The position numbers and the translations under genes are program-made. DNA of 51,549 nucleotides from Dehalococcoidia bacterium (GTDB taxonomy: Bacteria > Chloroflexota > Dehalococcoidia > GIF9 > AB-539-J10). Location: assembly GCA_021160725.1 (NCBI GenBank), contig JAGHCA010000044.1:1-51549 (forward strand). The letters run 5' to 3'. Each line of letters begins with the position of its first letter. The first letter of the stretch is position 1. Of the stretch, positions 13,193 to 43,094 are shown one piece after another. The notes beneath the pieces were generated by a model. That model saw nothing but the letters and a program-made list of their open reading frames with translations. It was not told where the DNA came from and did no database searches.

Positions 13193-14311
13193 ATGAGGAA
13201 GCTGGAGATTCAACGGGAACAAGCGTTGCAGGCGCGGCAAGAGTTCAAATTGATCATGCGACTGGAACAGGCTGGTTTGCTGGAAATGCCCGAAGAGGAG
13301 TTTAACAGGCTTACCACCGAAGTAGAAAGCAGCCCCTTATTTAGAAAGTTATATCGGAAGGATGGAATAATTCATTATCAGAGGTATCCTAAGACAGACT
13401 TTTCTCCTCGCTTTTATCAACTTAATGAAGAGATTGTTGCTGGGACAGACACTCTTGATATCGACTCTCTTTTATCTAACAAAGGAGATGTAATTCGTCT
13501 GATAAAGAAAATAGGGCTGGATAATTTTAAGCGCTATTTTCTTTATCCTGAACCCAGGGTAAGCATAGAAGAGGTCACTCAAGAGTGCAATTTGGAGCTT
13601 GCAGAGGTTGAAAGGATAGATAGCCTCATTAACGAATTCTCCATTATGAGCGAGTTTTACAACCCTTCTGTTCTGAGTTCGGAACATGGAATTCACTACT
13701 CCAAGGTCGCTTCGATAGAAAGGGGGGCTGAGGGTTTTATTATCAGCTATATCTCTCCGCCTTATGCGCGGGGAAGATATTCGATTGACTATGCGAGATT
13801 TGAGGAATTGAGGCAGAGTGGAGTTATCACCAAGGCTGAGGTAAAGGAAATCAGACAGCTATTTAAGAAGCTAGAGCTAATCAATAGACGTAAGGACACG
13901 GTTACTCGGATATTGCAAGGAATTGTGGAAAAGCAAGCACCCTATTTCGAATCCGGTAACGGCAAGGCTATCCTGCCGTTTAGCCAAAAAGAGCTAGCTG
14001 AAAGGATTGGGCTTGCTCCAAGCTCAATTAGCCGCGCTATTAGCGGTAAAAGCCTTGAGATGCCATGGGGCGAAGAGAAGGCCCTTAAGGATTTCTTTCC
14101 TCGGCCGAGAAGGTTTCGGAAGGAACTGGTCAGGCAGCTTCTTGAAACAGGGGAAGAATTCCCCTCTGATGAAGCGATTAAAGCCGAACTTGAACAGAAA
14201 TTTGGCGTTTCTATTTCCCGCCGTCTAGTAGCAAGCTTGAGGAAGGAATTAAAAATACCCGCAGCTTGGAAAAGGGGAAGACAGCCCTCTAAGAAAGCAA
14301 AAGGAGGATAA
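13193..14311 (+). CDS. short, divergent sigma-54 (RpoN)-like factor
   Basis: 372 aa. Region-I-like N-terminus (LEIQREQALQARQEFKLIMRLEQAGLLEMPEEEF..EVESSPLF). HTH segment SQKELAERIGLAPSSISRAISGKSLEMPWG..LKDFF. RpoN-box-like FGVSISRRLVASLRKELKIP. About 100 aa shorter than typical RpoN. Confidence 0.6.
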   Translation: MRKLEIQREQALQARQEFKLIMRLEQAGLLEMPEEEFNRLTTEVESSPLFRKLYRKDGIIHYQRYPKTDFSPRFYQLNEEIVAGTDTLDIDSLLSNKGDVIRLIKKIGLDNFKRYFLYPEPRVSIEEVTQECNLELAEVERIDSLINEFSIMSEFYNPSVLSSEHGIHYSKVASIERGAEGFIISYISPPYARGRYSIDYARFEELRQSGVITKAEVKEIRQLFKKLELINRRKDTVTRILQGIVEKQAPYFESGNGKAILPFSQKELAERIGLAPSSISRAISGKSLEMPWGEEKALKDFFPRPRRFRKELVRQLLETGEEFPSDEAIKAELEQKFGVSISRRLVASLRKELKIPAAWKRGRQPSKKAKGG

Positions 14312-14313
14312 TA

Positions 14314-16260
14314 ATGGGCATTATCTTTACAGTGACGGAGAAGTGTAAGGGGTGCTATGCCTGTGTTCGCAACTGCCCGGTCAAGGCTATTAGAGTGAAG
14401 GAAGGGATAGCCGGAGTTATGGAGGAGAGGTGTGTTACCTGTGGCGTCTGTATCAACATATGCGCTATAGGGGCCAGAGAGGCTAAGAGCGACATAGGTT
14501 ATGTTCGCCAGCTATTGGGGCAATCCACTCCGGTAATCGCTGCCCTTTCCTCCGCCTTTACGGCAGCTTTTCCAGAAATCAGGCCGAAGCAGTTAGTATC
14601 TGCTTTGAAGAAGCTGGGGTTCAGTGAGGTAATGGAAACTGCCTTTGGTGCTGAGCTGGTCTGCCGCGAGTATGGACGAATGGTAAAGGGAAACAAAGGA
14701 AAGCCCATTCTTTCCTCTACCTGTCCTGCTGTAACTTCCCTGGTGGAAAAACACTATCCTCAGCTAATCGATAGACTGGCACCAATTGTGTCGCCCATGA
14801 TCGCCATGGGCAGGGTCATTAAATGGCGGTACAATCCTGAGGCTAAAGTAGTCTTCATTGGCCCCTGTATAGCTAAAAAAGCTGAAGCAGAGGATGAGAA
14901 AGTTGCCGGGGTCATTGACGCTGTTCTGACCTTTTCCGAGCTGAGGGAGATGTTGGCGACAAAGGAAATCGACCTCCTTTCTGAGGAGGAAGAGCAGTTC
15001 TCTGGCCCCAGGCCTCATCTCGGTCGCCTGTTCCCTGTGCCCGGGGCTTCACTTAAGCTAGCGGGAATCTCTGGTGATACCATGATAAGCGATGTCGTTG
15101 TAGCTGAGGGCATTGATCGTGCTAGCAGTTGCCTTCTGGAATTTGCTCAAGGCAAGGTCAAAACCAAGTTTATGGACATATTCTTCTGCCGGGGTTGTAT
15201 TGACGGACCAGCGATAAATAAGAGCCTAAGCCTTTGTGGACGTAGGGAAAAAATAGTTGATTATGCTTTGGAGGATGCAGATCCGGCTCGAACGGAGAGC
15301 GACATCGAGCAATATGCTGACATTGACCTCAGCCGCAAATTTACCAATCGATATACTGTGCTACGCACCCCGACCGAAGATGAGATCAACGACATCCTGA
15401 GACAAATCGGTAAGCTAAAAAGAGAAGATCAACTCAACTGTGGAGCCTGTGGATATAATTCCTGTCGAGAGCTGGCTACTGCCGTCTGTCAAGGTTTAGC
15501 AGAGCGTGAGATGTGCTGGCCTTATCTGGTCAACGAATTACAGAATACACAGGATGAACTCCTCAGGGCTGAGAAGTTAACCTCGCTGGGCCAGTTGGCT
15601 GCCTCCATTGCTCACGAAATCAATAATCCTCTGACTGGTGTACTGGTCTATACCCAGTTGCTATCAAAGAAAGTGGCTGGTGATGCTTTTAAGAGAGAAC
15701 AAGCCTTGGAGTATCTTTCCAAGATGGAATCCGAGGTAGGTCGTTGCTCCAGGATAATCCGAAATCTTTTAGATTTTGCTCGGCAAACTGAGCCAATGTT
15801 GAGGTTGGTGGATGTTAACCGGGTTATAGAACAGGTATTGGCTATGGTAGGGCATCAAGCTCAACTTCAAAACGTTGAGATTGTGAAAGAGTTTAGCCCA
15901 TCCTTGCCTAAGGTCATAGCTGATTTCGACCAGCTTCAACAGGTATTTACTAATCTCACGCTGAATGCTATCCAGGCGATGTCTGAAGGGGGTAAGCTGA
16001 CTCTGCGCACGTCCGTGGAGAATAGTCAAGTTAGGGTTGATGTCCAGGATACAGGTTGTGGTATTTCAAAAGATAACTTGAGTAAGCTTTTCACTCCTTT
16101 CTTCACCACCAAGGCAAAAGGCAAGGGTGTAGGGTTGGGATTAGCTGTAGTTCACGGGATTATTGAGAGGCACAAGGGAGTAATCAAAGTGCAAAGTGAG
16201 GTGGGGAAAGGAACCACCTTCACCGTCTATTTGGGAGGCCACAACGATGAAAAAGGTTAA
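14314..16260 (+). CDS. sensor histidine kinase with 2x[4Fe-4S] ferredoxin, [FeFe]-hydrogenase-like domain and CxxCGxxxC Fe-S domain as input
   Basis: N-terminal CKGCYACVRNCP and CVTCGVCINIC. Hydrogenase H-domain-like motifs SSTCPAV, GPCIAKKAE and FFCRGCIDGP. Also NCGACGYNSCRELATAVC. H-box SIAHEINNPL and HATPase_c (DTGCGI..GKGVGLGL). The RBS lies inside the end of the preceding gene. Confidence 0.85.
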   Translation: MGIIFTVTEKCKGCYACVRNCPVKAIRVKEGIAGVMEERCVTCGVCINICAIGAREAKSDIGYVRQLLGQSTPVIAALSSAFTAAFPEIRPKQLVSALKKLGFSEVMETAFGAELVCREYGRMVKGNKGKPILSSTCPAVTSLVEKHYPQLIDRLAPIVSPMIAMGRVIKWRYNPEAKVVFIGPCIAKKAEAEDEKVAGVIDAVLTFSELREMLATKEIDLLSEEEEQFSGPRPHLGRLFPVPGASLKLAGISGDTMISDVVVAEGIDRASSCLLEFAQGKVKTKFMDIFFCRGCIDGPAINKSLSLCGRREKIVDYALEDADPARTESDIEQYADIDLSRKFTNRYTVLRTPTEDEINDILRQIGKLKREDQLNCGACGYNSCRELATAVCQGLAEREMCWPYLVNELQNTQDELLRAEKLTSLGQLAASIAHEINNPLTGVLVYTQLLSKKVAGDAFKREQALEYLSKMESEVGRCSRIIRNLLDFARQTEPMLRLVDVNRVIEQVLAMVGHQAQLQNVEIVKEFSPSLPKVIADFDQLQQVFTNLTLNAIQAMSEGGKLTLRTSVENSQVRVDVQDTGCGISKDNLSKLFTPFFTTKAKGKGVGLGLAVVHGIIERHKGVIKVQSEVGKGTTFTVYLGGHNDEKG

Positions 16261-17602
16261 AATACTAGTGGTTGATGATGAGGCTATTGTCCGCGAGTCG
16301 CTAAGCGAATGGCTCAAGGATGTTGGCTATCAGGTTTTCGCCGCTGAAAGTGGCCCCAAGGCATTAGAGGTGATTGGGAAGGAAAAGCCGGGCATCATGA
16401 TTGCCGATCTGGTTATGCCGGGTATGGACGGTATTGAATTGATGAAAAGGGCTAAAGAGCTTCATCCTAGGATAGAGGTTATTATTATCACAGCCTATGC
16501 TAGCATCCCTACCGCCATCGCTGCTATAAAAGAAGGGGCATACGATTATATTGAAAAGCCCTTTTGCCCTGAGAGAGCCGAATTCCTCGTCGAAAAATTA
16601 GCTGAACATCAGGAACTCGTCGAGGAAAACCTCGCCCTGCGTCATAGATTGGAAGACCGTTACCGCTTTGAGAACATCATTGCTAAGAGCTCCAAGATGC
16701 AGCGGCTGATTGAGTTGATAAAGGTTGTGGGCAAAAGCAACGCCACAGTATTAATCACAGGTGAAAGCGGCACAGGGAAGGAGTTAGTAGCACGTGCCAT
16801 TCATTCTCAGAGCCATCGTCGGAACAAGCCCTTTGTCGCTGTTAGTTGTGCTGCTTTGCCGGAAAGCCTTTTGGAAAGCGAACTGTTTGGCCACGAGAGG
16901 GGTTCCTTCACCGGCGCCTACACTCGGAAGAAGGGCAAATTCGAGTTTGCCAGTGGGGGGACTCTTTTTTTGGATGAAATCGGCGAGATGAGTGCCAATA
17001 TCCAAGTACACCTGTTAAGGGTTTTAGAAGAGAAAGAATTTACTCGCGTCGGTGGCAATGAGCCACTCAGAGTTGATGTAAGAGTTATTTCCGCGACTAA
17101 TAAGGACTTAAGAAAGGCCATAGAAAAGCAAGAATTCCGAGAAGACCTTTATTATCGCCTTAATGTAGTTAACATCGAATTGCCACCCTTGAGGGAAAGG
17201 AAGGAGGATATCCCTCTCTTGGCTGAGCATTTCTTGAATAAGTTTGCTTCGGAGAATCGGAAAGAGATTACCGGATTCTCTACCGATACTGTAGAATTTC
17301 TGCTCGATTATGACTGGCCGGGCAATGTCCGTGAGTTGGAAAATGCCATTGAAAGGGCGGTCATCCTGGCTAAGGATAGCATTATCACCATTGCTGACCT
17401 GCCTCAGAAGAAGATATCGCCTGCTTATTCAACTGCGCAGAGGAAAAATCTTAAAGAAGTAGAAAAAGAGCACATCTTGAATATCCTCCGTGAAACCGGC
17501 GAGAACTACAGTCAGGCAGCTAGAATCTTGGGAATTAGCAGGATGACGCTTTACAAAAAGGCAAGGGAATATGATTTAAGTGTAAAGAAAATTAAACAGT
17601 GA
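16247..17602 (+). CDS. sigma-54-dependent response regulator (NtrC family)
   Basis: REC (MKKVKILVVDDE..DLVMPGMDG), AAA+ sigma-54 activator core (GESGTGKE, ESELFGHERGSFTGA, the latter spanning the GAFTGA-type loop) and a C-terminal Fis-type HTH. Start placed at ATG 16247 behind GGGAGG, not at 16196. Confidence 0.9.
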   Translation: MKKVKILVVDDEAIVRESLSEWLKDVGYQVFAAESGPKALEVIGKEKPGIMIADLVMPGMDGIELMKRAKELHPRIEVIIITAYASIPTAIAAIKEGAYDYIEKPFCPERAEFLVEKLAEHQELVEENLALRHRLEDRYRFENIIAKSSKMQRLIELIKVVGKSNATVLITGESGTGKELVARAIHSQSHRRNKPFVAVSCAALPESLLESELFGHERGSFTGAYTRKKGKFEFASGGTLFLDEIGEMSANIQVHLLRVLEEKEFTRVGGNEPLRVDVRVISATNKDLRKAIEKQEFREDLYYRLNVVNIELPPLRERKEDIPLLAEHFLNKFASENRKEITGFSTDTVEFLLDYDWPGNVRELENAIERAVILAKDSIITIADLPQKKISPAYSTAQRKNLKEVEKEHILNILRETGENYSQAARILGISRMTLYKKAREYDLSVKKIKQ

Positions 17603-17663
17603 CTGATTAATTATTTACATAACTCGGCAAGACGGTAGTTCCTAAGTCTGTCGCCCTAGTGAA

Positions 17664-17700
17664 GAAAACTATCCTGAATTTTCAGGATGGTTTTTTATTT
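17664..17700 (+). terminator. intrinsic terminator after the regulator operon
   Basis: ATCCTGAA-TT-TTCAGGAT palindrome (17671-17688), flanked by an A-tract upstream and GGTTTTTTATTT downstream. Confidence 0.65.
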
Positions 17701-17756
17701 CGACGGAAGGATTGTAGTTGGCTTAGATTAGAAGATTAAGATATAGGGAAAGAGAT

Positions 17757-17772
17757 TGGCAAGAAAATTGCT
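17757..17772 (+). promoter_or_regulatory. sigma-54 (-24/-12) promoter TGGCAA-N5-TTGCT
   Basis: GG at 17758-17759 and GC at 17770-17771 with canonical spacing. RBS GAAAGGAGG (17785-17793) and ATG 17801 follow at the expected distance. Confidence 0.7.
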
Positions 17773-17800: not shown

Positions 17801-18868
17801 ATGGACAAAGAAGTGGTCTCAGTAAAACAAGAAAAAGAGCAGGAGGTGAATGAAATGAAACCAGTATTAATTGTTGAGGACGAAGCCATAGTACGTGAAT
17901 CGCTCAGAGACTGGCTTAAGAATGTGGGCTATGAAGTCGAAACAGCTGAGGAAGGTGAAGAAGCACTGGAGAAGATCGAGAATAAGGAATTCAGTGTCGC
18001 AGTTCTCGATCTAAGGCTGCCCGGAAAGGACGGATTGGAGGTATTGAGGGAAGCCACTGAGAAAAACCCGAAGATCAAGGGCATAGTTATCACTGCTTAT
18101 CCCTCAGTGGAAACCGCCGTGGAGGCGATGAAAATGGGTGCTATTGATTACATAGCGAAGCCATTTACCCCCGACGCCCTGGAGAGGAAAATTCAGGAGG
18201 TTCTAGGCTCGATTCAGATGAAGGTAAAACCTAAGGAAAGGAAGGTTGAGGAAGCCTCAGCGGAACTCACGGCAGTTAAGGAGGCTGGCATTGAGGAAGC
18301 TATAGTGATAACTGAAGAAGAGATCCCTACTCATCTGGAGGAAGGTCGAGCTTACTTCGAAGCGGGCCGCTACCAGGAGGCATTAAGAGAATTTCAGGCC
18401 ATTTTACAGGTTGCTCCGGGACACATAGAAACTCGAACCTGGGTCCAGAAGACCAAGAAAGCATTGGCGAAGCCGAAAGTAGAGGTACCTGAAGGAGAAG
18501 GTGCTGTTGAGGAAGGGGCGAAAGTCTGTATTTGGGCGAAGATGGGGATAGTCTCTCACAGGTACTGCACTCGGGATTATGACTGCTTGACCTGTGAGTT
18601 TGACCAGATGATGCAGGAGAAAGTGGCCTCCGGTGAGACTCCTGAGCTTGATGAGGCTCTGGAGAAGTTTAAGAACCTACCAGGATCCCAGAGACTTTGT
18701 CGTTATTCCCTAAAGGGCGACGTTTCGTACCGCCTTTGCTCTCGTGTCTTTCAATGCGCGACCTGCGAATTCGGGCAGCTCATGGAGGATGTCCTGGAGC
18801 GAAAGCTAGACAAGTTGTCTGCCCGCCGCCAGATTCTGAGTAAGAAGCGGTCGACTCTTAAAGACTGA
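17801..18868 (+). CDS. response regulator: REC + TPR-like segment + duplicated Cys4 (C..C..CxxCEFxQ) C-terminal domain
   Basis: REC (KPVLIVEDE..VLDLRLPGKDG..ITAY..KPF). TPR-like GRAYFEAGRYQEALREFQAILQVAPG. Two homologous Cys4 units (CIWAKMGIVSHRYCTRDYDCLTCEFDQMMQE and CRYSLKGDVSYRLCSRVFQCATCEFGQLMED). ATG 17855 is an alternative start. Confidence 0.8.
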   Translation: MDKEVVSVKQEKEQEVNEMKPVLIVEDEAIVRESLRDWLKNVGYEVETAEEGEEALEKIENKEFSVAVLDLRLPGKDGLEVLREATEKNPKIKGIVITAYPSVETAVEAMKMGAIDYIAKPFTPDALERKIQEVLGSIQMKVKPKERKVEEASAELTAVKEAGIEEAIVITEEEIPTHLEEGRAYFEAGRYQEALREFQAILQVAPGHIETRTWVQKTKKALAKPKVEVPEGEGAVEEGAKVCIWAKMGIVSHRYCTRDYDCLTCEFDQMMQEKVASGETPELDEALEKFKNLPGSQRLCRYSLKGDVSYRLCSRVFQCATCEFGQLMEDVLERKLDKLSARRQILSKKRSTLKD

Positions 18869-19023
18869 GCTGGCGAGAACAGCGGCAAAAACTTGTCTTT
18901 TGGGGTGGAGTTTATTATACTTTTAACCTGTACTCCGATTTGAGTTATCGGCAAAGAGGGTAACTAGGAGGTTTTTGCGTCGGCTGTTTTTTTGTTTCCC
19001 AGTCTTGAAATGGCGGAACCATA

Positions 19024-20172
19024 GTGAAAACAATAAGTCCTTATAAAGAAGCTACGGATGTAATACTTGAGGCGGGCGGTGAGCCTCTTAAATTGTGTTA
19101 TCAGTGTGGCCTTTGCACTGCTGTTTGTCCCTGGAACGTAGTGCGCAGTTTCTTGGTTCGCCGCATCATGCATGAAGCTCAGCTTGGGGTAACTGATTTT
19201 GACAGCGAGGATGTCTGGACTTGTGCCACTTGTCGAGCTTGTGTCCAGCGTTGCCCTCGGGGCGTTGAGATAATAGATGTCGTGAGGGCTGTACGTCGAG
19301 TTGTGGCTAGTCTCGGCATTGGTGTTGTCCCTGATGCTCTTCGGATATCAGCTAAGAACATCGCCGGCGTAGGTAATCCCTTTGGTGAAGCGCCAGAAAA
19401 GCGTAATGACTGGGCTAAAGATCTGGGGGTGAAGGAGTTCGTCCCGGGTACTGAAATACTTTATTTCCCTTGCTGTGTTCCCTCCTATGATCCTGATGTG
19501 AAAACAGTAGCTCGATCTGTTGCCACGATCTTCAATAAGCTGGGGGTTGATTATGGCCTGATAAGCACAGAGGCAAGATGCTGTGGCGAGTCAATTAGGA
19601 AGGCTGGGCATGAAGACACTTTTCAAAACCTGGCTCACAATAATATTAACCTCTTTGCCAATAATGATGTCAAAACTGTGGTAGTTTCCTCCCCACACTG
19701 CTACCATACTTTCAGAAATGAGTATCCCGAGCTTGGAGGCAAATTCGAAGTAATTCATATTACCCAATACTTAGCTTCACTTATCGACGAAGGAAAATTG
19801 AAGTTCTCTAAGACGATGAATAAAAAGGTAATCTATTCTGATCCTTGCTATTTGGGGAGGCATAACAATGTCTATGACGAACCTAGAAAGATATTGCAGA
19901 GTATTCCCGGCCTGGAATTAATAGAATTTCCCGATGCCCGCGAGAATGCTCTTTGTTGTGGTGGTGGCGGCGGTAGAATCTGGATGGATACACCGAAAGG
20001 GGAAAGGTTCTCTGATATAAGGGTAGAGCAAGCTGTAGAGAAAGGCGCTGATATTATAGCCTTGGCGTGTCCTTACTGCTTCCTCAACTACAGGGATAGC
20101 GTGCTATCTATGGGCAAGGCAGAGACTATGCAGGTTAGAGATATCGCTGAGCTTGTTGCTGAAGCAGTGTAA
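19024..20172 (+). CDS. HdrD-like fused HdrC/HdrB protein (2x[4Fe-4S] + two CCG domains)
   Basis: 382 aa. Carries CYQCGLCTAVCP and CATCRACVQRCP, then CCG-domain motifs (PCCVPS, ARCCGES, DPCYLGRH, ALCCGGGGG, ACPYC). GTG start with a weak RBS. Confidence 0.85.
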   Translation: MKTISPYKEATDVILEAGGEPLKLCYQCGLCTAVCPWNVVRSFLVRRIMHEAQLGVTDFDSEDVWTCATCRACVQRCPRGVEIIDVVRAVRRVVASLGIGVVPDALRISAKNIAGVGNPFGEAPEKRNDWAKDLGVKEFVPGTEILYFPCCVPSYDPDVKTVARSVATIFNKLGVDYGLISTEARCCGESIRKAGHEDTFQNLAHNNINLFANNDVKTVVVSSPHCYHTFRNEYPELGGKFEVIHITQYLASLIDEGKLKFSKTMNKKVIYSDPCYLGRHNNVYDEPRKILQSIPGLELIEFPDARENALCCGGGGGRIWMDTPKGERFSDIRVEQAVEKGADIIALACPYCFLNYRDSVLSMGKAETMQVRDIAELVAEAV

Positions 20173-20188
20173 TAGCAGGGGAGCCAAA

Positions 20189-23100
20189 ATGGAAGAGGTA
20201 AAAATTGGTGTTTATGTCTGCTGGTGCGGCTTAAATATCGCTGGCACAGTGGATTCTGAAGAGGTGGCCAGGTATGCTGGAACCCTGCCCCATGTGGCGG
20301 TTGCCCGTGACTATAAGTATATGTGCTCCGATCCTGGACAGGATCTCATTAAGAATGATATTAAGAGGTTGGGGATTAATCGAGTTGTGGTTGCTTCCTG
20401 CTCACCGAGATTGCATGAACCCACGTTTCGCAAAGCTTGCCGGGATGCCGGACTGAACCCATATCTATATGAGCACGCAAATATCAGGGAGCACTGCTCT
20501 TGGCCCCATGCCACAGACAAGAATCGAGCCACAGAAAAGGCCAAGGACCTTGTACGTGCTGCAGTAAGGCGTGTCTATTATCAAGAACCTCTGGAGATTA
20601 AGGAGGTTCCGGTGAATCCCAATGTCTTGGTTGTGGGGGGTGGTATTGCTGGCATTCAAGCTGCTCTGGATATCGCTGATGGGGAGAAGAAAGTCTACAT
20701 GGTGGAACGGGACGCATCCATTGGTGGACATATGATTCAGCTTGATAGGACATTCCCCACTCTAGATTGCTCAGAGTGTATTCTCACTCCCAAGATGACC
20801 GATACTGGTCATCATCCTAACATCGAGTTAATGACCAACAGCGAAGTAGAGGAGGTTTCGGGGTATATCGGCAATTTCAATGTCAGGATCAGGAAAAAGC
20901 CCAGGTATGTCGATGTCGATAAATGTAACTCATGCGGTGAATGTGCCAAGGTGTGCCCTGTTGAAGTGCCCGATGAGTTTGAGATGGGCTTGAGTATGAG
21001 GAAAGCAGCATATTTACCTCTTCCTCAGGCTGTTCCCGCCGCTTTTGCCATTGACAAAAGAGGCACTGCGCCCTGCCGCATTGCTTGCCCCGCCGGTGTT
21101 AATGCTCAGGGCTACATCGCCCTTATTTCCCAGGGCAAGTTCAAGGAGGCTCTTGAGTTAGTGAGGAGAGCTATGCCATTTGCTGGAGTCCTGGGGCGTG
21201 TTTGTACTCATCCCTGTGAACTCGAATGCGAGCGAGGGAAGTTTGATGAACCCGTCAGCATCCGTGCTTTGAAACGCTTTATAGCTGACTATGAGTTGAA
21301 GACAGAGAGAGAGAAGGTGGTTCCCATTGAGACAACAAAAGATAGCAAGGTGGCTGTTATCGGTTCTGGCCCTGCCGGTCTTGCCTGTGCTTATGATTTG
21401 ATTAGAGAGGGTTATGCTGTTACCGTATTTGAGTCTCTGCCTCGGGCAGGCGGACTGCTTAGATATGGTATCCCTGAGTATAGGTTGCCCAAGGAGGTAC
21501 TTGATAACGACATAAGTTATATACAGGAATTAGGAGTAGAGATTAAAACGAAGTCACCAGTGGAGGATCTTGCCGAGGTTTTCAATCAGGGATATGCGGC
21601 CATCTTTATTGCCAGCGGTGCCCAAGGAAGCCAGAAAATGGGCATACCCGGTGAAGAAACGAGCGGTGTAATTCATGCCCTTGATTTTCTAAGAATGGTT
21701 AATGCTGGAGTGGACATCAAGTTAGGCAATAAAGTAGTGGTTGTCGGCGGTGGTAATGCTGCCATAGATGCTGCTAGGGCATCTTTACGACTTGGAGCCA
21801 GGGAAGTTACTGTTGTTTATCGCCGCTCTCGTGACGAAATGCCTGCTATAAGCAGCGAAGTTGAGGAAGCGGAGCATGAAGGAATTAAAATCCATTTTCT
21901 GGCCACACCCACCAAAATCCTGTCCAGAGATGGCCAATTGTCGGCTATAGAATGTATCACGATGAAGCTGGGTGAACCAGATGCCAGCGGTCGCCGTCGT
22001 CCTGTAGCTGTCAAGGGGACGGAATTCACCATGAATGTTGACAATGTCATCATTGCAATCGGTCAAACTGTGGACAAGACGGCACTGCCGAAGGAGCTTA
22101 ATTACACTAGTTGGGGCACACTGGAGGTTGATCCCGTCACCTTGCAAACCCATATTGCTGGTGTGTTCGCTGGCGGCGACGTAGTTTCTGGACCGGCTGA
22201 TGTCGTGGTAGCGGTTGCCGCTGGCAAGGAAGCAGCTATTTCCATTGATCGGTATCTAAGAGGAGTCAGTCTAACCGAGGAAAGGCAGGTAACACCGAAA
22301 CGTGTGGAAAACGTATCAAAGGAAAGAGCCCAGCTAAAAGCGAGAGCTTCTACCCCGCTGCTTAAGCTTGATGAAAGGAAAGGCTCCTTCGCTGAGGTTG
22401 AACTAAGCTTTGATGAAAAGACGGCAATTGAGGAGGCCAAACGCTGTCTGAACTGTGGCGTATGCTCGGAATGTTTGGAATGCGTGAAGGTCTGTGAGCA
22501 AGGGGCAATTAATCATGAAATGCAAGATGAGTTCGTTGAGGTCGAGGTAGGCTCGATGATTCTAGCTACTGGCTACCAGCAGTTTGACCCCAGTGTCATA
22601 CCTCAGTATGGATATAAGAAGTTCGATAATGTCCTGACCGGACTTGAATTCGAAAGGATAACCTGTGCAGGAGGGCCAACTCAAGGACGGATTCAACTCA
22701 AGGATGGTAGAGAACCGGAGAGTGTAGCCATAGTGCATTGTGTGGGCAGCCGGGACCAGAACTACCATGAGTATTGCTCTAGAGTATGCTGCATGTATGG
22801 ACTCAAATATGCCGAATTGATAAAAGAGTTTACCAAAGCAGAGGTATATGAATTTTATATTGACATGAGATGTTTTGGTGAGGCTTTTGAGGAATTCTAT
22901 AAACGTGTTTCCGAGATGGGAGTCAATTTCATCCGAGGAAAGGTGGCTAACATTACCGACCGGGTGATGGGCGAAGAGGAGAGGGGGAAATTAATTGTCA
23001 CAGCAGAGGATACGTTACTGGGAAAGATGATACGTGTCCCTGTGGATATGGTTATCCTGTGTGCGGCCCTAGAGGCACGCTCTGACGCGGCTGATGTGGC

Positions 23101-23554
23101 GAGCCTTTTTACCATAGGCCAAAGAGGAGACGGCTTCTTCTTGGAAACCCATCCTAAGCTTGCTCCAGTAAACACGCCAACAGATGGAGTTTTCATTGCT
23201 GGGTGCTGCGAAGCACCAAGAGACGTCCCTGATACTGTGGCGCAGGCTTCGGCAGCAGCATCCAAGGCTTTGTCATTGATAAGTAGAGGCAAGGTAACCA
23301 CTGAAGCAGCTGTGTCGTATGTGGATGAATCTATTTGCCATGGATGTGGCCGCTGCGAGGAAATCTGTACTTTTCATGCCCCCTCGATTATCAGAACGGA
23401 TGGACGCTTGGTTTCTAGCATAAACGAAGCTCTCTGTAAGGGATGTGGAGCATGCGCTGTTGTGTGTCCTACAGGGGCAGCACAAATCAAGCACTTCAAT
23501 ATGCAGGAAATAGAGGGTCTGGTCGACGGCTTGCTGGAGGTGCACCGTGGCTGA
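20189..23554 (+). CDS. HdrA-type flavoprotein with inserted GltD/NfnB-like NAD(P)H-flavin module
   Basis: 1121 aa from ATG 20189. The HdrA N-domain (VYVCWCGLNIAG), FAD motif VVGGGIAGIQAAL, DCSECILTPKM, CVGSRD..YCSRVCCMY and the C-terminal 2x[4Fe-4S] are collinear with the paralogue at 29946. Between them sits a GltD-like block (CPAGVNAQGY..GRVCTHPCELEC, VIGSGPAGLACA, VVGGGNAAIDAAR..VYRRS). Confidence 0.85.
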   Translation: MEEVKIGVYVCWCGLNIAGTVDSEEVARYAGTLPHVAVARDYKYMCSDPGQDLIKNDIKRLGINRVVVASCSPRLHEPTFRKACRDAGLNPYLYEHANIREHCSWPHATDKNRATEKAKDLVRAAVRRVYYQEPLEIKEVPVNPNVLVVGGGIAGIQAALDIADGEKKVYMVERDASIGGHMIQLDRTFPTLDCSECILTPKMTDTGHHPNIELMTNSEVEEVSGYIGNFNVRIRKKPRYVDVDKCNSCGECAKVCPVEVPDEFEMGLSMRKAAYLPLPQAVPAAFAIDKRGTAPCRIACPAGVNAQGYIALISQGKFKEALELVRRAMPFAGVLGRVCTHPCELECERGKFDEPVSIRALKRFIADYELKTEREKVVPIETTKDSKVAVIGSGPAGLACAYDLIREGYAVTVFESLPRAGGLLRYGIPEYRLPKEVLDNDISYIQELGVEIKTKSPVEDLAEVFNQGYAAIFIASGAQGSQKMGIPGEETSGVIHALDFLRMVNAGVDIKLGNKVVVVGGGNAAIDAARASLRLGAREVTVVYRRSRDEMPAISSEVEEAEHEGIKIHFLATPTKILSRDGQLSAIECITMKLGEPDASGRRRPVAVKGTEFTMNVDNVIIAIGQTVDKTALPKELNYTSWGTLEVDPVTLQTHIAGVFAGGDVVSGPADVVVAVAAGKEAAISIDRYLRGVSLTEERQVTPKRVENVSKERAQLKARASTPLLKLDERKGSFAEVELSFDEKTAIEEAKRCLNCGVCSECLECVKVCEQGAINHEMQDEFVEVEVGSMILATGYQQFDPSVIPQYGYKKFDNVLTGLEFERITCAGGPTQGRIQLKDGREPESVAIVHCVGSRDQNYHEYCSRVCCMYGLKYAELIKEFTKAEVYEFYIDMRCFGEAFEEFYKRVSEMGVNFIRGKVANITDRVMGEEERGKLIVTAEDTLLGKMIRVPVDMVILCAALEARSDAADVASLFTIGQRGDGFFLETHPKLAPVNTPTDGVFIAGCCEAPRDVPDTVAQASAAASKALSLISRGKVTTEAAVSYVDESICHGCGRCEEICTFHAPSIIRTDGRLVSSINEALCKGCGACAVVCPTGAAQIKHFNMQEIEGLVDGLLEVHRG
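21062..22440 (+). other. GltD/NfnB-like insertion within the HdrA hybrid
   Basis: Boundaries come from aligning the protein by eye with the uninterrupted paralogue (29946..31934). Collinearity is lost after ..AIDKRG and resumes around ..EEAKRCLNCGVC. Confidence 0.7.
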
Positions 23555-23990
23555 GTTTGAGCCTAAGATTATCGTTTTTGCATGTAACTGGTGTACCTAT
23601 GCCGCAGCCGATCTAGCCGGAACGAGCCGAGTTCAATATCCTCCTAATGCCTATATCGTCAGGATGATGTGCAGCGGGATGATAAATCCCAGCTATGTTC
23701 TTAGAGCCTTTGAAGATGGTGCAGACGGAGTTATAGTCTCTGGATGTCATTACACTGATTGCCATTACATCGATGGACCGGTAAAGTGCGATGCCATGTT
23801 TGCCAAGCTAAAGAGGTTAGTACATATTCTTGGCTTGGAGGACGAGAGGCTAAAGCGCGAGATGATATCTACCTCCGAGGGAACAGTATTTGCTAGAGTG
23901 GTTAGGGAGTTCGTAAGCGAGCTTAAGAGGCTAGGGCCTTCGCCTTTTTCATCTTTAAGAAATTCAAGAAAGGAGAAGGCAGTGGCTTGA
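23547..23990 (+). CDS. mvhD: MvhD (methyl-viologen-reducing hydrogenase delta subunit/FlpD family)
   Basis: 147 aa. Carries FACNWCTYAAADLAG, MCSG and GCHYTDCHY. GTG start in an 8-nt overlap (GTGGCTGA) with the hdrA stop. Confidence 0.9.
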   Translation: MAEFEPKIIVFACNWCTYAAADLAGTSRVQYPPNAYIVRMMCSGMINPSYVLRAFEDGADGVIVSGCHYTDCHYIDGPVKCDAMFAKLKRLVHILGLEDERLKREMISTSEGTVFARVVREFVSELKRLGPSPFSSLRNSRKEKAVA

Positions 23991-25153
23991 GTTTAGAGGA
24001 CATTATTCAAGAGACGAAAACCTATTACTGTCTGGAATGTGGCAAATGTACAAGTATATGTCCTGTCGCCAGATATGACCCAGCATTCTCTCCTCGGGCG
24101 ATGATTGAGAATGCTCTATTGGGACCTGAAGATGACTTGGTATTCAACCGAGAACTTTTTTCCTGCTTAACTTGTTACACTTGTCAACAGAGATGTCCCA
24201 GTGATGTCGATTTTCCTGTATTTGTGCGCAAAGCCCGCACCATAGCCCAAGATAATGGACAGCACGGAATTTGTGCCCACTCGGGGCAGTTGCAATCTCT
24301 GGCCAGGCTTATGACTAGCCCCGACATTAAGCAAAGGAGATTGGAATGGCTATCTGATAAATACCGCACCTCCGATGACTCCGATGTTCTTCTCTGGGTG
24401 GGGTGTGCTCCATATTTTGAAGCCATCTTTGAGGATATTGAGTTTAGAGCTCTTGATATCACTGAGGCCAGCTTGAAAATCTTGAATCTTCTGGGAATAG
24501 AGCCCAAGCTGCTTCCAGATGAGAAATGCTGTGGGCATGATGTGGTTTGGACTGGGGATGTAGAGACATTTAAGAAACTAGCCGAGCATAATGCGACCCA
24601 AATAAAAGAATCCGGGGTGCAGAAAATAATCTTCTCCTGCCCTGAAGGCTACCGAACATTGAAGCTGGATTATCCAAACTATGGCTTTGATGTTGGTTGT
24701 GAGTTACAACATATCTCTGAATTCTTGGCGGACAGAATCGAAAAGGGCGGCGTGAAGTTTAATGAAGTGAAAAAAAGGGTAACTTATCAGGATCCATGTA
24801 GGTTGGGAAGGCATCTCGGTATATATGATGCCCCCAGAAAAGTACTTAAATCTATTCCTGGCATAGAATTTGTCGAGATGCAATATAGTGGATGGGATGC
24901 TATTTGCTGTGGCACCAGCGCCTGGACTAACTGCGACTCGTATTCCAATATGATACGGGCGGAAAGGTTATCTGAGGCAACTGCCACCAAGGCTGAGACA
25001 CTCATAACATGCTGCCCCAAATGTCAAACCCATTTCAGATGCGCCATGACAGATAAGGGAAAAGAAAAGCGGTCGATGCCAAGTATTGAAGTTATGGATT
25101 TAGCAAACCTGGTAGCAAATGCTATTGAGGAAGGGAGTAATCTTAGCAAGTAA
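23987..25153 (+). CDS. HdrC/HdrB-like fused Fe-S/CCG-domain protein
   Basis: 388 aa. Carries CLECGKCTSICP and CLTCYTCQQRCP, plus CCG-domain motifs (EKCCGHD, QDPCRLGRH, AICCGTSAW, CCPKC). TTG start overlaps the mvhD stop (TTGA). Confidence 0.85.
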   Translation: MSLEDIIQETKTYYCLECGKCTSICPVARYDPAFSPRAMIENALLGPEDDLVFNRELFSCLTCYTCQQRCPSDVDFPVFVRKARTIAQDNGQHGICAHSGQLQSLARLMTSPDIKQRRLEWLSDKYRTSDDSDVLLWVGCAPYFEAIFEDIEFRALDITEASLKILNLLGIEPKLLPDEKCCGHDVVWTGDVETFKKLAEHNATQIKESGVQKIIFSCPEGYRTLKLDYPNYGFDVGCELQHISEFLADRIEKGGVKFNEVKKRVTYQDPCRLGRHLGIYDAPRKVLKSIPGIEFVEMQYSGWDAICCGTSAWTNCDSYSNMIRAERLSEATATKAETLITCCPKCQTHFRCAMTDKGKEKRSMPSIEVMDLANLVANAIEEGSNLSK

Positions 25154-25155
25154 TA

Positions 25156-27915
25156 ATGAGCAACAGGGAAAACGGACAGAAATCGGTGCTAGTAATTGGT
25201 GGTGGCATAGCGGGGATCCAGGCTTCGCTGGATCTAGCGAATATGGGCTTTAAGGTATATTTGGTGGAAAAATTGCCCAGCATCGGGGGAAGGATGGCGC
25301 AACTGGATAAGACTTTCCCTACTAATGATTGTGCCATGTGTATTTTGGCACCTAAGATGATTGAAGCGAGTACACATAATAACATAGAGCTTTTAACTTA
25401 TTGTGAAGTAGAAAAAGTTTCCGGGGAAGCAGGGAAATTTGAGGTCAAGGTAAAGAAAAAGTCATCTTTTGTCGATTGGGACAAATGTACAGGGTGCGGC
25501 CTCTGTATCGAAGGCTGCCCTGTCATTCTGCCAAATGAATTCGATCAAGGGATAGGAAAAAGAAAAGCTATATACATGCTATTTCCTCAGGCTGTTCCCA
25601 AGAAATGTGTTATAGACAAAAGGGAAGACCGCCCCTGTAAAGCGGCTTGCATGGATGCCTGTCCAGTTCATACTAACGTACCTGGGTACATCAAACTCGT
25701 TGCTGAAGGAGAGTTCAAAGAGGCTTATAAGCTTATAAGGGAGACAACCCCCCTGCCTGCATGTGTTGGCCGAGTATGCTATGCACCTTGTCAGGATGTC
25801 TGTAATCGCGGTGAAATAGATGAACCATTGTGTATCCGCGACATTAAGCGAGTTCCCTCGGATCAATGGAGTATCGAGGAACTTGAAGTACCGCCAATTA
25901 CAAAGACGGATAAAAAGGTAGCAGTTATAGGCTCGGGACCTGCAGGTCTTGCCGCTGCCAATGACCTTGCTCTAAAAGGGCACAGTGTGACTATCTTTGA
26001 GGCTCTTCCTGAACCCGGAGGTATGCTTCGCGTTGGCATACCGGAATATCGACTTCCCAAGGAAATTTTACGCCAGGAGATAGGCTACATTCAGAAACTT
26101 GGCGTGGAGGTAAAAACGGGCATTCGAGTCGGTAAAGATATCACCCTCGAAAAATTAAAAAAAGACTACGATGCCGTTTTCATTGCTATTGGGACACACG
26201 GTGGCATGAAGCTTGGGGTAGAGGGTGAAGATATTCCCGGAGTAATGGAGGGGATAGGATTTCTCCGCGCTGTAAATCTCGGGGAAAAGATAGATGTTGG
26301 AAATAGGGTAGCAGTGATTGGCGGAGGTAATACAGCTATAGATTGTGCCCGCACAGCAAAGCGCCTGGGAGCAAAAGAGGTGACCATTGTTTACCGCCGT
26401 TCTCGCGCTGAGATGCCAGCTTCCGCGGAGGAAGTGACAGCAGCCGAAGAAGAGGACATAAAGATCGAGTTTCTGACTATTCCAAGCCGCTTCTCTTCTG
26501 AGAATAAAAAGCTTGCCAAGATGGAATGTGTACGCATGAAGCTCGGGGAACCAGATGCCAGCGGGCGCCCTCGACCTATTCCCATTGAGGGTTCTGAATT
26601 TATTATTTCGGTGGATACAGTGATCACTGCATTGGGGCAGACTCCAGAAGCAGATTTTGTTAAACAGTCAGGAGTTTCGCTTTCCAAGAAGGGCACGATA
26701 GAAATTGATGCCAAGACTGGGGTGACCAGTGTTGAAGGAGTATTTGCTGGAGGTGATGTAGTTACAGGACCTGCTTTCGTGATTGATGCCATAGCGGCTG
26801 GGAAAAAGGCTGCTCGCTCTATGGATCAGTATTTGAATGGACAACCTCTTGAGCCAGAGGAAGAATGGAAGGAACCAGAGAAGCTGTCCCAGAAAGAGAT
26901 AGAGGATCTGAAGAAACGCTTTCCTTCCAGAAATAGAGTGGGGATGAGGAGGGAGCCAGCTAAGAAAAGAATCCAGGACTTTCGTGAGGTTGCTCTGGGG
27001 TATTCCTTAGAGGAAGCCTTAGAGGAAGCTTCACGCTGTTTGGCGGGACAAACAGAAGGGTGTATAGAATGCCATGAATGTGAACGACGATGCGAGCCAA
27101 AAGCAATAGTGTATACGAAGAAGGATGAAAGCATCGAGCTAAAGGTAGGCGCGATAATAGTTGCTTCAGGGCTTGGTTTATATGATATTTCAGCGCTACC
27201 AGAATATGGCTATGGCAAAATAAAAAACGTGATTAGCGCTATGGAATTTGAGAGATTGACTGCAGCATCTGGGCCTACTATGGGAGAACTCAGGCGTCCT
27301 TCGGATGGCAAGATACCTGAGAATATAGCTTTTATCCAATGTGTCGGCTCCCGCGATTTCAGGCATAAAGCTTATTGCTCCAGTGTCTGCTGTATGCATT
27401 CAACTAAGGAGGCAATGCTGGCTTTCGAACATCATCCGGGAACAAGATCCTTCATCTTCTACATGGATATGAGGGCTGTGGGCAAAAGATTTCAGGAATA
27501 TATTGCCAGGGCTAAGCAAGAATACAATGTCACTTATATCAGGAGTCGTCCCGGGAGGATTGAAGTTAATCCTGATAACGACAATCCTATTATCTGGTAT
27601 GAGGAAACCTCCAGTGGAGAAGTAAAGAAATTTGAGGTAGAGTTGGTAGTTCTTGCTCAAGCCATGATTCCTCAAATCACCCGGGAGTTGGCAGAAATAC
27701 TAGAAATAGAGTTAGACGAAGATGGCTTTGTGAGGACTGCAGATAGATTTCTGCAACCGCTGGACACTACAAAGCCAGGCATTTTTACCTGTGGCTATGT
27801 CCATAGCCCGCGGGACATCCCAGATTCGGTGACCCAGGCCTCTGGGGCAGCAGGCAGAGTAGCTGAAGAGATTGCTTCATCCCGATTGAATCGGGACTCG
27901 CAAGGAGGTAACTGA
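25156..27915 (+). CDS. HdrA-GltD hybrid lacking the HdrA N-terminal and C-terminal ferredoxin domains
   Basis: 919 aa. Starts directly at the FAD motif (VLVIGGGIAGIQASL). Has NDCAMCILAPKM and CTGCGLCIEGCP, a GltD block (CPVHTNVPGY..GRVCYAPCQDVC, VIGSGPAGLAAA, VIGGGNTAIDCAR..VYRRS), then CVGSRD..YCSSVCCMH. Ends after ..PRDIPDSVTQASGAAG. Confidence 0.85.
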   Translation: MSNRENGQKSVLVIGGGIAGIQASLDLANMGFKVYLVEKLPSIGGRMAQLDKTFPTNDCAMCILAPKMIEASTHNNIELLTYCEVEKVSGEAGKFEVKVKKKSSFVDWDKCTGCGLCIEGCPVILPNEFDQGIGKRKAIYMLFPQAVPKKCVIDKREDRPCKAACMDACPVHTNVPGYIKLVAEGEFKEAYKLIRETTPLPACVGRVCYAPCQDVCNRGEIDEPLCIRDIKRVPSDQWSIEELEVPPITKTDKKVAVIGSGPAGLAAANDLALKGHSVTIFEALPEPGGMLRVGIPEYRLPKEILRQEIGYIQKLGVEVKTGIRVGKDITLEKLKKDYDAVFIAIGTHGGMKLGVEGEDIPGVMEGIGFLRAVNLGEKIDVGNRVAVIGGGNTAIDCARTAKRLGAKEVTIVYRRSRAEMPASAEEVTAAEEEDIKIEFLTIPSRFSSENKKLAKMECVRMKLGEPDASGRPRPIPIEGSEFIISVDTVITALGQTPEADFVKQSGVSLSKKGTIEIDAKTGVTSVEGVFAGGDVVTGPAFVIDAIAAGKKAARSMDQYLNGQPLEPEEEWKEPEKLSQKEIEDLKKRFPSRNRVGMRREPAKKRIQDFREVALGYSLEEALEEASRCLAGQTEGCIECHECERRCEPKAIVYTKKDESIELKVGAIIVASGLGLYDISALPEYGYGKIKNVISAMEFERLTAASGPTMGELRRPSDGKIPENIAFIQCVGSRDFRHKAYCSSVCCMHSTKEAMLAFEHHPGTRSFIFYMDMRAVGKRFQEYIARAKQEYNVTYIRSRPGRIEVNPDNDNPIIWYEETSSGEVKKFEVELVVLAQAMIPQITRELAEILEIELDEDGFVRTADRFLQPLDTTKPGIFTCGYVHSPRDIPDSVTQASGAAGRVAEEIASSRLNRDSQGGN
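25624..27040 (+). other. GltD/NfnB-like insertion within the second HdrA hybrid
   Basis: Same position and motif order as the insertion at 21062-22440. Confidence 0.7.
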
Positions 27916-27916
27916 G

Positions 27917-35988: not shown

Positions 35989-37425
35989 CTACCTTATAAT
36001 CTCTTTTATTATTTCACCGTCAGGTGACACGACCTGAATGTTGAAAGGCATTTGACCTAAGGCATGTGTTGAGCAGGATAGACACGGGTCATAGCAGCGG
36101 ATAGCCACTTCAACCCGGTTGAGTATGCCTTCGGTTATTTTGTTGTTCTTTATGTGTGTTTTGGCTACCTCATATACTGCTTTGTTTATAGCAGCGTTAT
36201 TATTGCCTGTGGCTACTATGAGGTTGACTTTTTTGATTTTGCCGGTGTCGTCTACCCAGTAGTGGTGGAATAGAGTGCCCCTCGGTGCTTCGAGCACGCC
36301 AATACCCTGCTCGTTGTATTTGTTGGAAGTGACTATAAGGTCAGTCGAACAGATATCCTTATCCTCCAGCAACTGCTGGATCTTTTCGATGGAATAAAGC
36401 AGTTCTATGAGACGGGCGTAATGATAGTATAATGAACCTTCCACTATGCCGTTATTACCCAGTTTCTTGAAGTTCTTGAGTTCAGCATTGGCTAGTGGAG
36501 TGGATATTCCCTGGCTGACGTTGAGTCGGGCAAGCGGTCCCACCCGATAAGTACCCTTAGGGTAGCCCATCTTCTTGTAAAATGGAAACTTGAGATAAGA
36601 CCAATCCTCCACGTATTCGCTGATGATATCGAGGTAATTGGATGGATTGAACTGGTCTTCGAGGTTCTTTCCTTTCTGGTCAATTAACCGCAATTTGCCA
36701 TCGTAGAGTTCCAGATTGTTGTTTTCATCCACCAGCCCGAGATAGCCTGTGGGAAAACTGGCGCAGGTGCACACAAACTCATTATCTTGTTCATAGTAAT
36801 GCTTAATTACACTTATAGCAGTCTGCGCATCAGCGATAGCCCACCCAATTTGCTTCAATAAATGGTCTCTGTCGGCAGTGGATAGAGCTGTGTTCATGCC
36901 GCCAGGGACAGCGCCGTTAGGATGGATTTTCTTGCCACCTAGCTTTTGAATTACTGTCTGACCAAAGCTGCGAAGCTTGATACCTTTAACAGCGATGTCA
37001 GGATTCTCAGCAATCAGCCCAATTATATTTCTCCTTGCCGGTTCAGCATCCATGCCGAGAAGTAAATCTGGGCTGGCAAGGTGGAAGAAATGGAGGGCAT
37101 GGGATTGGAGGACCTGCCCCATATGCATTAATTCGCGCAATAGTTTAGCTGGGCGGGTCAGCTCAACTCCCAAAATCTCATCGCAGGCTTTGGCTGCGCC
37201 CAAGTGGTGGCTCACCGGGCAGATGCCACAAATTCTGGGTGTGATTGCCGGCATCTCCCAGAAAACTCTGCCTTCACAGAACTTCTCAAAGCCTCGAAAC
37301 TGTGTTACATGAAATTTAGCATCAGCTACATTCCCTGAATCATCCAGTTGTATCGTTACCTTGCCATGTCCTTCAAGCCGGCTAACGGGGTTTATTTCGA
37401 TAGTTTTGCTAACTTTAGTAGCCAT
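35989..37425 (-). CDS. hoxH: [NiFe] hydrogenase large subunit, group 3 (HoxH/HydL-like)
   Basis: 478 aa. N-terminal Ni-binding motif RICGICPVSHH and C-terminal DPCLSCSTH, followed by a 24-aa extension. Confidence 0.9.
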   Translation of the reverse strand: MATKVSKTIEINPVSRLEGHGKVTIQLDDSGNVADAKFHVTQFRGFEKFCEGRVFWEMPAITPRICGICPVSHHLGAAKACDEILGVELTRPAKLLRELMHMGQVLQSHALHFFHLASPDLLLGMDAEPARRNIIGLIAENPDIAVKGIKLRSFGQTVIQKLGGKKIHPNGAVPGGMNTALSTADRDHLLKQIGWAIADAQTAISVIKHYYEQDNEFVCTCASFPTGYLGLVDENNNLELYDGKLRLIDQKGKNLEDQFNPSNYLDIISEYVEDWSYLKFPFYKKMGYPKGTYRVGPLARLNVSQGISTPLANAELKNFKKLGNNGIVEGSLYYHYARLIELLYSIEKIQQLLEDKDICSTDLIVTSNKYNEQGIGVLEAPRGTLFHHYWVDDTGKIKKVNLIVATGNNNAAINKAVYEVAKTHIKNNKITEGILNRVEVAIRCYDPCLSCSTHALGQMPFNIQVVSPDGEIIKEIIR

Positions 37426-37439
37426 GTTTTCACCTCTTT

Positions 37440-37976: not shown

Positions 37977-38001
37977 GTTAGAAACTCCTTCTTTTCAATT
38001 G

Positions 38002-39993: not shown

Positions 39994-39995
39994 GT

Positions 39996-43085: not shown

Positions 43086-43094
43086 TGCACTCTC

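Follow-up and report, generated by a model that had tools for sequence, protein, structure and literature searches.

We analysed a 51,549-nucleotide stretch of DNA (the window), contig JAGHCA010000044.1 of the Dehalococcoidia bacterium assembly GCA_021160725.1, and centred the analysis on a response regulator gene that lies between a sensory operon and a group of hdr genes. The 355-residue product, translated from the open reading frame (ORF) at 17801-18868 on the plus strand, consists of a receiver domain (REC), an acidic linker, one TPR-like unit and two units with four cysteines each (Cys4 units), which together form a module that we call Cys8. This is the architecture that an earlier note on this DNA had proposed, and the translation, the Pfam matches and the alignment of the two units bore it out. 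The gene and its parts are as follows.

17801-18868, plus strand: response regulator REC-linker-TPR-Cys8, 355 residues, from the translation, Pfam and relatives.
17855-18205, plus strand: receiver domain, residues 19-135, phosphorylation-competent as judged by its conserved residues.
18317-18475, plus strand: TPR-like three-helix unit, residues 173-225, from Pfam and AlphaFold2.
18527-18619, plus strand: Cys4 unit 1, with C243, C256, C262 and C265, then an EFDQMMQE helix.
18698-18790, plus strand: Cys4 unit 2, with C300, C313, C319 and C322, then an EFGQLMED helix.
18791-18865, plus strand: basic helical tail, net +6 by charge count, with a long helix at 319-354 in the full-length model.

The start codon is the ATG at 17801. 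The TTG at 17756, which the ORF list gave as the start, was rejected because it overlaps a promoter (see below), and a Shine-Dalgarno sequence, GGAGG, stands 7 nt 5' of the ATG. The receiver matched PF00072 over residues 22-131 (E=1.2e-29, 103 bits against a cut-off of 30.2), and its catalytic residues E26/D27, D70, T98 and K120 were invariant among 27 orthologues. The TPR matches were marginal, there being one unit only: TPR_2 covered residues 178-208 with 27.9 bits against a cut-off of 27, and TPR_14 scored 24.4 bits against 23.5. In a full-length AlphaFold2 model built from 27 close orthologues, which was poor overall (predicted local distance difference test, pLDDT, 46) and usable in the TPR region alone, helices were placed at residues 172-187, 191-204 and 209-223 with a pLDDT of 70-90.

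Beyond REC and TPR, Pfam returned no further domain in the 355 residues and NCBIfam nothing outside the receiver. The absence of a DNA-binding, GGDEF, HD or kinase output, already noted from the sequence, held in both databases, and up to E=10 neither gave a winged-helix, HTH, LytTR or ANTAR match outside REC. The GcvH domain found in many relatives is absent from this regulator by Pfam. The Cys8 domain is acidic here (net -4), its charge varies across the family from -9 to +12, and its commonest fusion partner is GcvH-like. For these reasons the best reading of the protein is that of a non-DNA-binding response regulator, with Cys8, preceded by the TPR-like unit, as its putative output.

Each Cys4 unit follows the motif C-x12-C-x5-C-x2-C-E-F-x-Q and runs on into an E-F-x-Q-x-M helix, and the two units align without gaps with 14 of 33 positions identical (42%, E=5e-11). 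The cysteine spacing first proposed was correct; the tyrosine placed directly before the second cysteine ('YC') was not part of the motif, as it occurs in unit 1 of this protein only and is replaced by I, L, V or M in the family. When residues 230-355 were used as the query of a word-indexed search, 561 clusters of full-length orthologues were returned. Among the 120 relatives listed, which were 69-100% identical over these residues, all eight cysteines were kept in 120/120. They were likewise kept in 46/46 diverse domains, whose alignment had no invariant columns other than the eight cysteines and a tryptophan, W9 (W245), so that the conservation of the cysteines, on which the original proposal depended, was confirmed at both depths. 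The columns that define the family, namely two C-x12-C-x5-C-x2-C units, a tryptophan after Cys1 and an [EF]-D-Q helix after Cys4, are all present in this protein. Modelled by AlphaFold2 with the diverse alignment, Cys8 was compact and confident (pLDDT 88.4; predicted TM score 0.73), and each unit formed a short strand pair with the CxxC at the N terminus of a helix.

That the domain has no name was also upheld. Searches of Pfam, NCBIfam, PDB sequences and PDB folds gave nothing above threshold for Cys8, and no ferredoxin (Fer4, Fer2), zinc-ribbon or other curated Fe-S or Zn model matched it above threshold. A single-sequence hit in the PDB, 2kpq_A (E=0.18), was put down to chance: it lacks the cysteine ligands and was gone when the family profile was used. 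Membership of the CHY zinc finger family zf-CHY (PF05495) was rejected as well, this protein scoring 15.2 bits against a cut-off of 31.3 and the best member reaching E=0.0012. The zf-CHY model matches many unrelated Cys-rich ORFs in the same way and exceeded its cut-off in 0 of 151 genomes, and a PDB profile search with the Cys8 family returned no CHY structure. A description of the domain was not found in full-text literature searches on the motif, the gene context, HdrL/GcvH and archaemetzincin/sigma-54. Cys8 is a conserved, un-named domain described in no database searched.

Cys8 probably binds metal. Apart from the invariant cysteines, the signs of metal ligation are that histidine replaces Cys1 in a paralogue of some relatives and that stand-alone single Cys4 units with all four cysteines exist, suggesting that one unit makes one four-ligand site; such single units and a Cys-to-His swap at a ligand position are features to be expected of a metal site. 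Ferredoxin-style cross-ligation between the units, hinted at by a truncated paralogue, was not favoured, given that four-Cys single-unit proteins exist. Between the two obvious metals, Fe-S would be favoured over Zn because of the 3+1 spacing with its C-x5-C-x2-C triad, which in the literature comes mostly from Fe-S proteins, because the hosts are exclusively anaerobes, and because of fusions to Fe-S subunits and to the input position of a kinase.

An exhaustive phmmer search over 1.84 billion representatives returned 226 clusters of the family (50% identity), of which 95 reached E<=1e-10, with GcvH-fused forms down to 1e-24. The idea of an adaptor specific to this one system has to be abandoned in view of these 226 clusters, which show several architectures, most often Cys8-GcvH-like. 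Among the 78 representatives of at least 190 residues, the module was joined to a GcvH-like domain in 44 and to a receiver in 16. One of the 78, P0127, has the order TPR-Cys8-HisKA-HATPase, which places Cys8 at the input end of the kinase, a sensor-like use. A few representatives carry Fer2/Fer4, P0230 joining Fer2/Fer4 domains to Cys4 units, and one Cys4 unit is fused to the C terminus of a NuoG-like Fe-S protein. Further forms have a single Cys4 unit followed by a GcvH-like domain, or TPR-Cys8 without a receiver. LbpA of the sHdr system, a lipoate carrier, was considered as an analogue of the fused GcvH-like domains (PMC6067878). This role was rejected because the lipoyl lysine is not conserved, its column holding G, E or D, and K in 2/28; the fused GcvH-like proteins are therefore not lipoate carriers. 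Relatives are annotated publicly as 'response regulator', 'hypothetical protein' or 'glycine cleavage system protein H'.

The regulator form occurs in metagenome-assembled genomes of Dehalococcoidia/Chloroflexota and the GcvH form in Desulfobacterota, with Desulfonema magnum 4be13 and Desulforhabdus sp. TSK as cultured carriers of the latter; all hosts seen (Dehalococcoidia, Desulfobacterota) are anaerobes. Of 301 genomes from each phylum, 5 Chloroflexota genomes and 65 of the Desulfobacterota-type phylum carried Cys8, and in the latter multiple or tandem copies were frequent. The 1.45-Mb genome to which the window belongs has one copy.

Upstream of the regulator gene lies a sigma-54 cassette, which ends in a terminator and is followed by a promoter.

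13193-14311, plus strand: short sigma-54 paralogue, 372 residues, first gene of the cassette (Pfam Sigma54_DBD, E=1e-20).
14314-16260, plus strand: sensor histidine kinase with a [FeFe]-hydrogenase-like (HydS-type) input (Pfam Fer4, Fe_hyd_lg_C, FeS, HisKA and HATPase_c).
16247-17602, plus strand: REC-AAA+-HTH_8 enhancer-binding protein, EBP (Pfam Response_reg, Sigma54_activat at 5e-75, AAA_lid_14 and HTH_8).
17581-17619, no strand assigned: palindrome TGTAAA-N27-TTTACA, candidate upstream activator site, straddling the EBP stop codon.
17671-17699, plus strand: terminator hairpin and T-run closing the sensor operon (ATCCTGAA..TTCAGGAT, then GGTTTTTTATT).
17757-17772, plus strand: sigma-54 (-24/-12) promoter TGGCAAGAAAATTGCT, an exact match to TGGCA-N6-TTGCW.

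Sigma-54 proteins elsewhere in the phylum have about 470-530 residues, compared with 372 here, and the gene in the cassette is the only sigma-54 gene of the genome. Within the class, sigma-54 was found only in the three sampled genomes with REC-TPR-Cys8; at least 22 others were without it. The EBP, which carries the GSFTGA loop, is the sole true EBP of the genome. The genes for sigma-54, kinase, EBP and Cys8 regulator form a four-gene block that is syntenic at orthologous loci, with the kinase two genes upstream of the regulator at all of them.

The promoter, TGGCAAGAAAATTGCT, lies 28 nt before the ATG of the regulator gene. Although the proteins of the 17 orthologous loci are only 55-77% identical, 14 of these loci have TGGCAAGAAAATTGCA or a close variant 5' of the regulator gene. 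Most of the 15 aligned upstream regions keep the palindrome at the DNA level, including the part past the stop codon, and the hairpin with its T-run is conserved in relatives at the same place. Genome-wide, 19 sites matched the sigma-54 pattern, of which the one at 17757-17772 alone is intergenic and correctly placed. The claim that the regulator stands behind the only sigma-54 promoter was thus right, this being the sole well-placed one in the genome. From the conserved promoter and the sigma-54 and EBP encoded in the same genome, the regulator gene appears to be sigma-54-dependent, and the circuit seems to be private, its apparatus existing to transcribe this one gene.

Two second targets were considered and rejected, a match on contig C70, probably a chance one, inside an MvhD gene and one on contig C25 inside an EtfA-like gene. 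The C70 region (C70:3623-9314) contains a MetF/MetV-like, MvhD and split-HdrA cluster preceded by two single-domain receiver proteins. At about 17700-17756 of the window, and in one related locus (L001: TCGGCAAGAAAATTGCC), a degenerate first copy occupies the place where other loci have the promoter, and a functional-looking copy follows about 55 nt further on; the degenerate and the intact copy together suggest a local duplication.

The receivers of the regulator and the EBP are 52% identical, the next best REC in the genome reaching 35%, and their alpha-1 helices are nearly identical (EAIVRESLRDWLKNVGY and EAIVRESLSEWLKDVGY). In two-component systems partner recognition lies largely in the alpha-1 helix of the receiver. 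On the strength of the likeness of the receivers and of these helices, we infer that the two proteins are common substrates of the hydrogenase-like kinase, which would phosphorylate both the EBP and the regulator.

Gene neighbourhoods were compared using greedy ORF calls at each locus; the term HdrL follows the usage in PMC5947623. Hdr genes were near the regulator in 7 of the 17 orthologous loci with matches, sometimes upstream and divergent. In a Dehalococcoidia genome that has no sigma-54, a TPR-Cys8 gene heads a NuoE-NuoF-Fe-S operon. Another Dehalococcoidia locus, L174 (G186:C12:689-9986), has two NuoE/NuoF pairs and a formate-dehydrogenase-like molybdopterin subunit, and inside this NuoEF/formate-dehydrogenase cluster a protein resembling the N terminus of NuoG ends in one Cys4 unit.

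Two sets of Desulfobacterota loci were used. In the first (20 loci retrieved, 17 with a called Cys8 ORF), an activator or a kinase adjoined the Cys8 gene in most cases (activator in 12/17 by Pfam), and an HdrL gene encoding at least 1124 residues lay on the same strand in 9/17. The recurring order was kinase, activator, M54, Cys8-GcvH and HdrL, and several Cys8 genes were monocistronic with no redox genes nearby. The second set consisted of 53 loci of the Desulfobacterales subfamily around L079. Upstream of the Cys8-GcvH genes, a -24/-12 element was present in 10/18 and 34/53 cases, compared with a background of 0.024 per 330 nt. A gene for a Peptidase_M54 protein (archaemetzincin-like, about 170-220 residues) was a constant member of these cassettes, in 11-12/17 and 45/53 loci (L064-L083, L097-L156).

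Judged from neighbourhoods and fusions in two phyla, Cys8 has two robust associations, with sigma-54 two-component systems on the one hand and with soluble, bifurcating-type flavoprotein complexes on the other. The connection with Hdr put forward in the earlier note was therefore half right, since it recurs in a second phylum and yet the commonest neighbour is the kinase and EBP pair, not Hdr.

The constancy of that pair raised the possibility that the regulator is a feedback element of the two-component system and nothing more. The induced receiver would then serve as a phosphate sink or a modulator of the kinase, with Cys8 as a structural (zinc) module or one that docks on the kinase or EBP, making no direct contact with a redox enzyme. 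Such logic is comparable to that of ZraP for ZraSR or PspA for PspF. Kinase and EBP are the most constant neighbours of Cys8 (15/17, 46/53 and all sufficiently flanked Dehalococcoidia response regulator loci), the regulator gene is itself a predicted sigma-54 target of that EBP, the regulator REC closely mimics the EBP REC, and the monocistronic Cys8 genes fit as well. The idea sits poorly with the relative that keeps TPR-Cys8 at the head of a NuoEF-type operon and has no REC, kinase, EBP or sigma-54, with the Cys4 unit fused to a NuoG-like Fe-S subunit, and with the same-strand pairing of HdrL and Cys8 genes at about half of the loci in the phylum-wide sample. We consider this explanation unlikely, if one to be taken seriously.

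The same fusions and operons could be read in another way, with Cys8 as a ferredoxin-like electron-transfer module holding two Fe-S clusters, a redox partner or subunit of HdrL and NuoEF-type complexes; the regulator would read or pass electrons and would not be an adaptor. The joining to Fer2/Fer4 subunits, the position of Cys8 genes at the head of HdrL and NuoEF operons, the anaerobic hosts and the triad within the 3+1 cysteine spacing are all in its favour. Nevertheless, the module has no likeness to any ferredoxin model and many Cys8 genes have no redox neighbour. Moreover, we know of no precedent for a receiver joined to a part that simply carries electrons. This makes the electron-transfer function doubtful, and we rate it as distinctly unlikely.

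Downstream of the regulator gene the window contains the following features.

18893-18921, plus strand: sigma-70-type promoter TTGTCT-17-TATACT of the hdr operon, from a consensus scan, both hexamers conserved in 5 aligned loci.
18953-18994, plus strand: hairpin and T-run in the hdrD leader, a possible attenuator (RNAalifold: 13 pairs, 3 compensatory, 5 sequences).
19024-29596, plus strand: genes for an HdrD-like protein, HdrL (HdrA with an NfnB/GltD-like module), MvhD, a second HdrD-like protein and a split HdrA pair.

The hdr genes begin 155 bp after the regulator gene and were identified by Pfam (CCG, Fer4, Pyr_redox_2, Fer4_20, FAD_oxidored and FlpD), except for the ORF at 27917-29596, which had tblastn matches only. 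Further along the window, NiFe/NuoEF-type proteins are encoded at 35989-43625. After the hdr promoter, a conserved A-tract, hairpin and T-run resembles a leader terminator or attenuator; the hairpin had no match in Rfam. In four relatives (L001, L003, L009 and L011) the gap from the regulator gene to hdrD is longer by about 250 nt and contains a strong terminator (GGGGCAGCTGTC...GACAGCTGCCCC-TTT). This terminator segment is missing at 18869-19023 of the window, which leaves this genome as the only one where transcription from the sigma-54 promoter could run on into hdr. Co-transcription of the regulator with hdr is not supported in general, given the terminator of the relatives and the conserved promoter that hdr has of its own. 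The regulator does have the sensory operon on one side and the Hdr genes on the other, as had been pointed out, but this position does not mean co-transcription.

A leader with a conserved promoter and a terminator-like hairpin might need a regulator, and Cys8 with its basic tail could be a new zinc-finger nucleic-acid-binding output, of a transcription factor or antiterminator, with the hdr sigma-70 promoter or the leader hairpin as its target. Most response regulators bind DNA, the tail has a net charge of +6, and the weak zf-CHY-like matches point in the same direction. These matches are non-specific, however, and no HTH, ANTAR or zinc-ribbon model matched; the GcvH-like, kinase and Fe-S fusions are without the tail, and many loci have no hdr operon nearby. 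With the domain acidic here, its charge not conserved in the family and fusion partners of this kind, we disfavour nucleic-acid binding and regard it as very unlikely.

We arrived instead at a reading in which the regulator is a phosphorylation-gated, metal-dependent adaptor that acts on an HdrL/Hdr or NuoEF-type complex and is made when the sensor kinase is active. We hold this with middling confidence, about evenly balanced between belief and doubt. In a first step the hydrogenase-like sensor kinase (14314-16260) would phosphorylate the EBP. The EBP, with the short sigma-54 of the cassette, would then fire the single -24/-12 promoter at 17757, and without the signal no regulator would be made. 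In a third step the same kinase would phosphorylate the receiver of the regulator. As both proteins would share the kinase, this arrangement would amount to a feed-forward AND gate in which competition for phosphoryl groups is a built-in feedback. Finally, phosphorylation would alter the binding of TPR-Cys8 to another protein, for which the likeliest candidate is a soluble flavoprotein complex that bifurcates electrons, of the HdrL/HdrA-MvhD-HdrD or NuoEF type, and the metal sites may hold the fold or report redox state. Of all this, the analysis shows the architecture and its conservation, the lack of a known match, the conserved promoter, the apparently private sigma-54 circuit and the recurring neighbourhoods and fusions; from these we infer metal binding, the likely metal, phosphotransfer from the kinase, the partner and the output.

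Several observations weigh against the adaptor reading. With a separate promoter for the hdr operon and, in relatives, a terminator behind the regulator gene, there is no transcriptional coupling, and the genes that come after the regulator are unrelated ones at several Dehalococcoidia loci. In the second Desulfobacterota set an EBP lay within 3 kb in 46 of the 53 loci and HdrL within that distance in 1/53. Since the Hdr link is not universal, it could be the two-component system that is the constant partner. Nucleic-acid binding by the basic C-terminal tail is conceivable, and 21 of the 46 Cys8 members have sub-threshold matches to zf-CHY, a zinc-binding model. A bolder version of the adaptor reading, in which Cys8 is an Fe-S redox-reading docking module, the two-component system acts post-translationally on bifurcating flavoprotein complexes and the private sigma-54 apparatus serves only this protein, is speculative, and we think it improbable as a whole.

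Like RssB-type adaptors, CheY-like proteins and REC-TPR proteins, the regulator has an intact receiver followed by a non-enzymatic, non-DNA-binding, TPR-like part. It differs from them in that the output is an undescribed eight-Cys module and the gene is the apparent sole target of a dedicated sigma-54 circuit. In Cupriavidus necator, HoxBC-HoxJ-HoxA is an H2-sensing cascade that ends at sigma-54 promoters, and HydS proteins are sensory [FeFe] hydrogenases. As in these systems, a hydrogenase-derived sensor is coupled here to a kinase and an NtrC-type activator. In contrast to them, sensor and kinase are parts of one protein here, what the promoter drives is a second regulator and not enzyme genes, and the sigma factor is a short, seemingly private paralogue.

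The Cys8-GcvH proteins of Desulfobacterota share with the regulator the double Cys4 module, sigma-54 promoters, kinase and EBP neighbours and, frequently, HdrL. They differ in having the module at the N terminus, followed by a GcvH-like domain that lacks the lipoyl lysine, in having no REC or TPR, and in the Peptidase_M54 of their cassette. WhiB-like proteins, the N terminus of FNR and RseC resemble Cys8 in that a short Cys4 site, with a close triad and a distant ligand, is found in regulators. The order and spacing of the cysteines differ, and no sequence or fold relation to these proteins was detected. In the N terminus of RseC the motif is CX5CX2CX5C (PMC11729352). The likeness to the CHY zinc finger (PF05495) is limited to a local pattern, C-x3-Y-x-C-x2-C, with scores far below the 31.3-bit cut-off.

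How flavin-based bifurcating enzymes (Hdr, HdrL, NuoEF/Bfu) are regulated in anaerobes is largely unknown, as is the function of many 'orphan' HdrL clusters. The locus provides a conserved domain of about 100 residues that should be easily expressed, a complete and minimal sigma-54 circuit with an apparently single output (sensor kinase, activator, private sigma factor and one promoter), and repeated genomic links from Cys8 to bifurcating complexes in two phyla. If Cys8 binds Fe-S and docks on these complexes, it would give a direct experimental handle on their regulation, and docking would mean that a bifurcating enzyme is controlled by phosphorylation. If the regulator feeds back on the kinase only, it would represent a new class of accessory protein for sigma-54 two-component systems. 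In addition, hundreds of proteins annotated 'glycine cleavage system H' are something else.

Two further observations concern relatives of the regulator. In some Dehalococcoidia a second small regulator of about 205 residues, which is absent from this genome, is encoded directly downstream (L006:5043-5660; L010:8521-9141); it consists of a receiver and a reduced module with histidine for Cys1 and a truncated second unit. Some Cys8-GcvH-like proteins (P0134, P0138 and P0142) carry an extra N-terminal cysteine motif that had no Pfam match and reads MKCPFLEE..V..YCKA...P.

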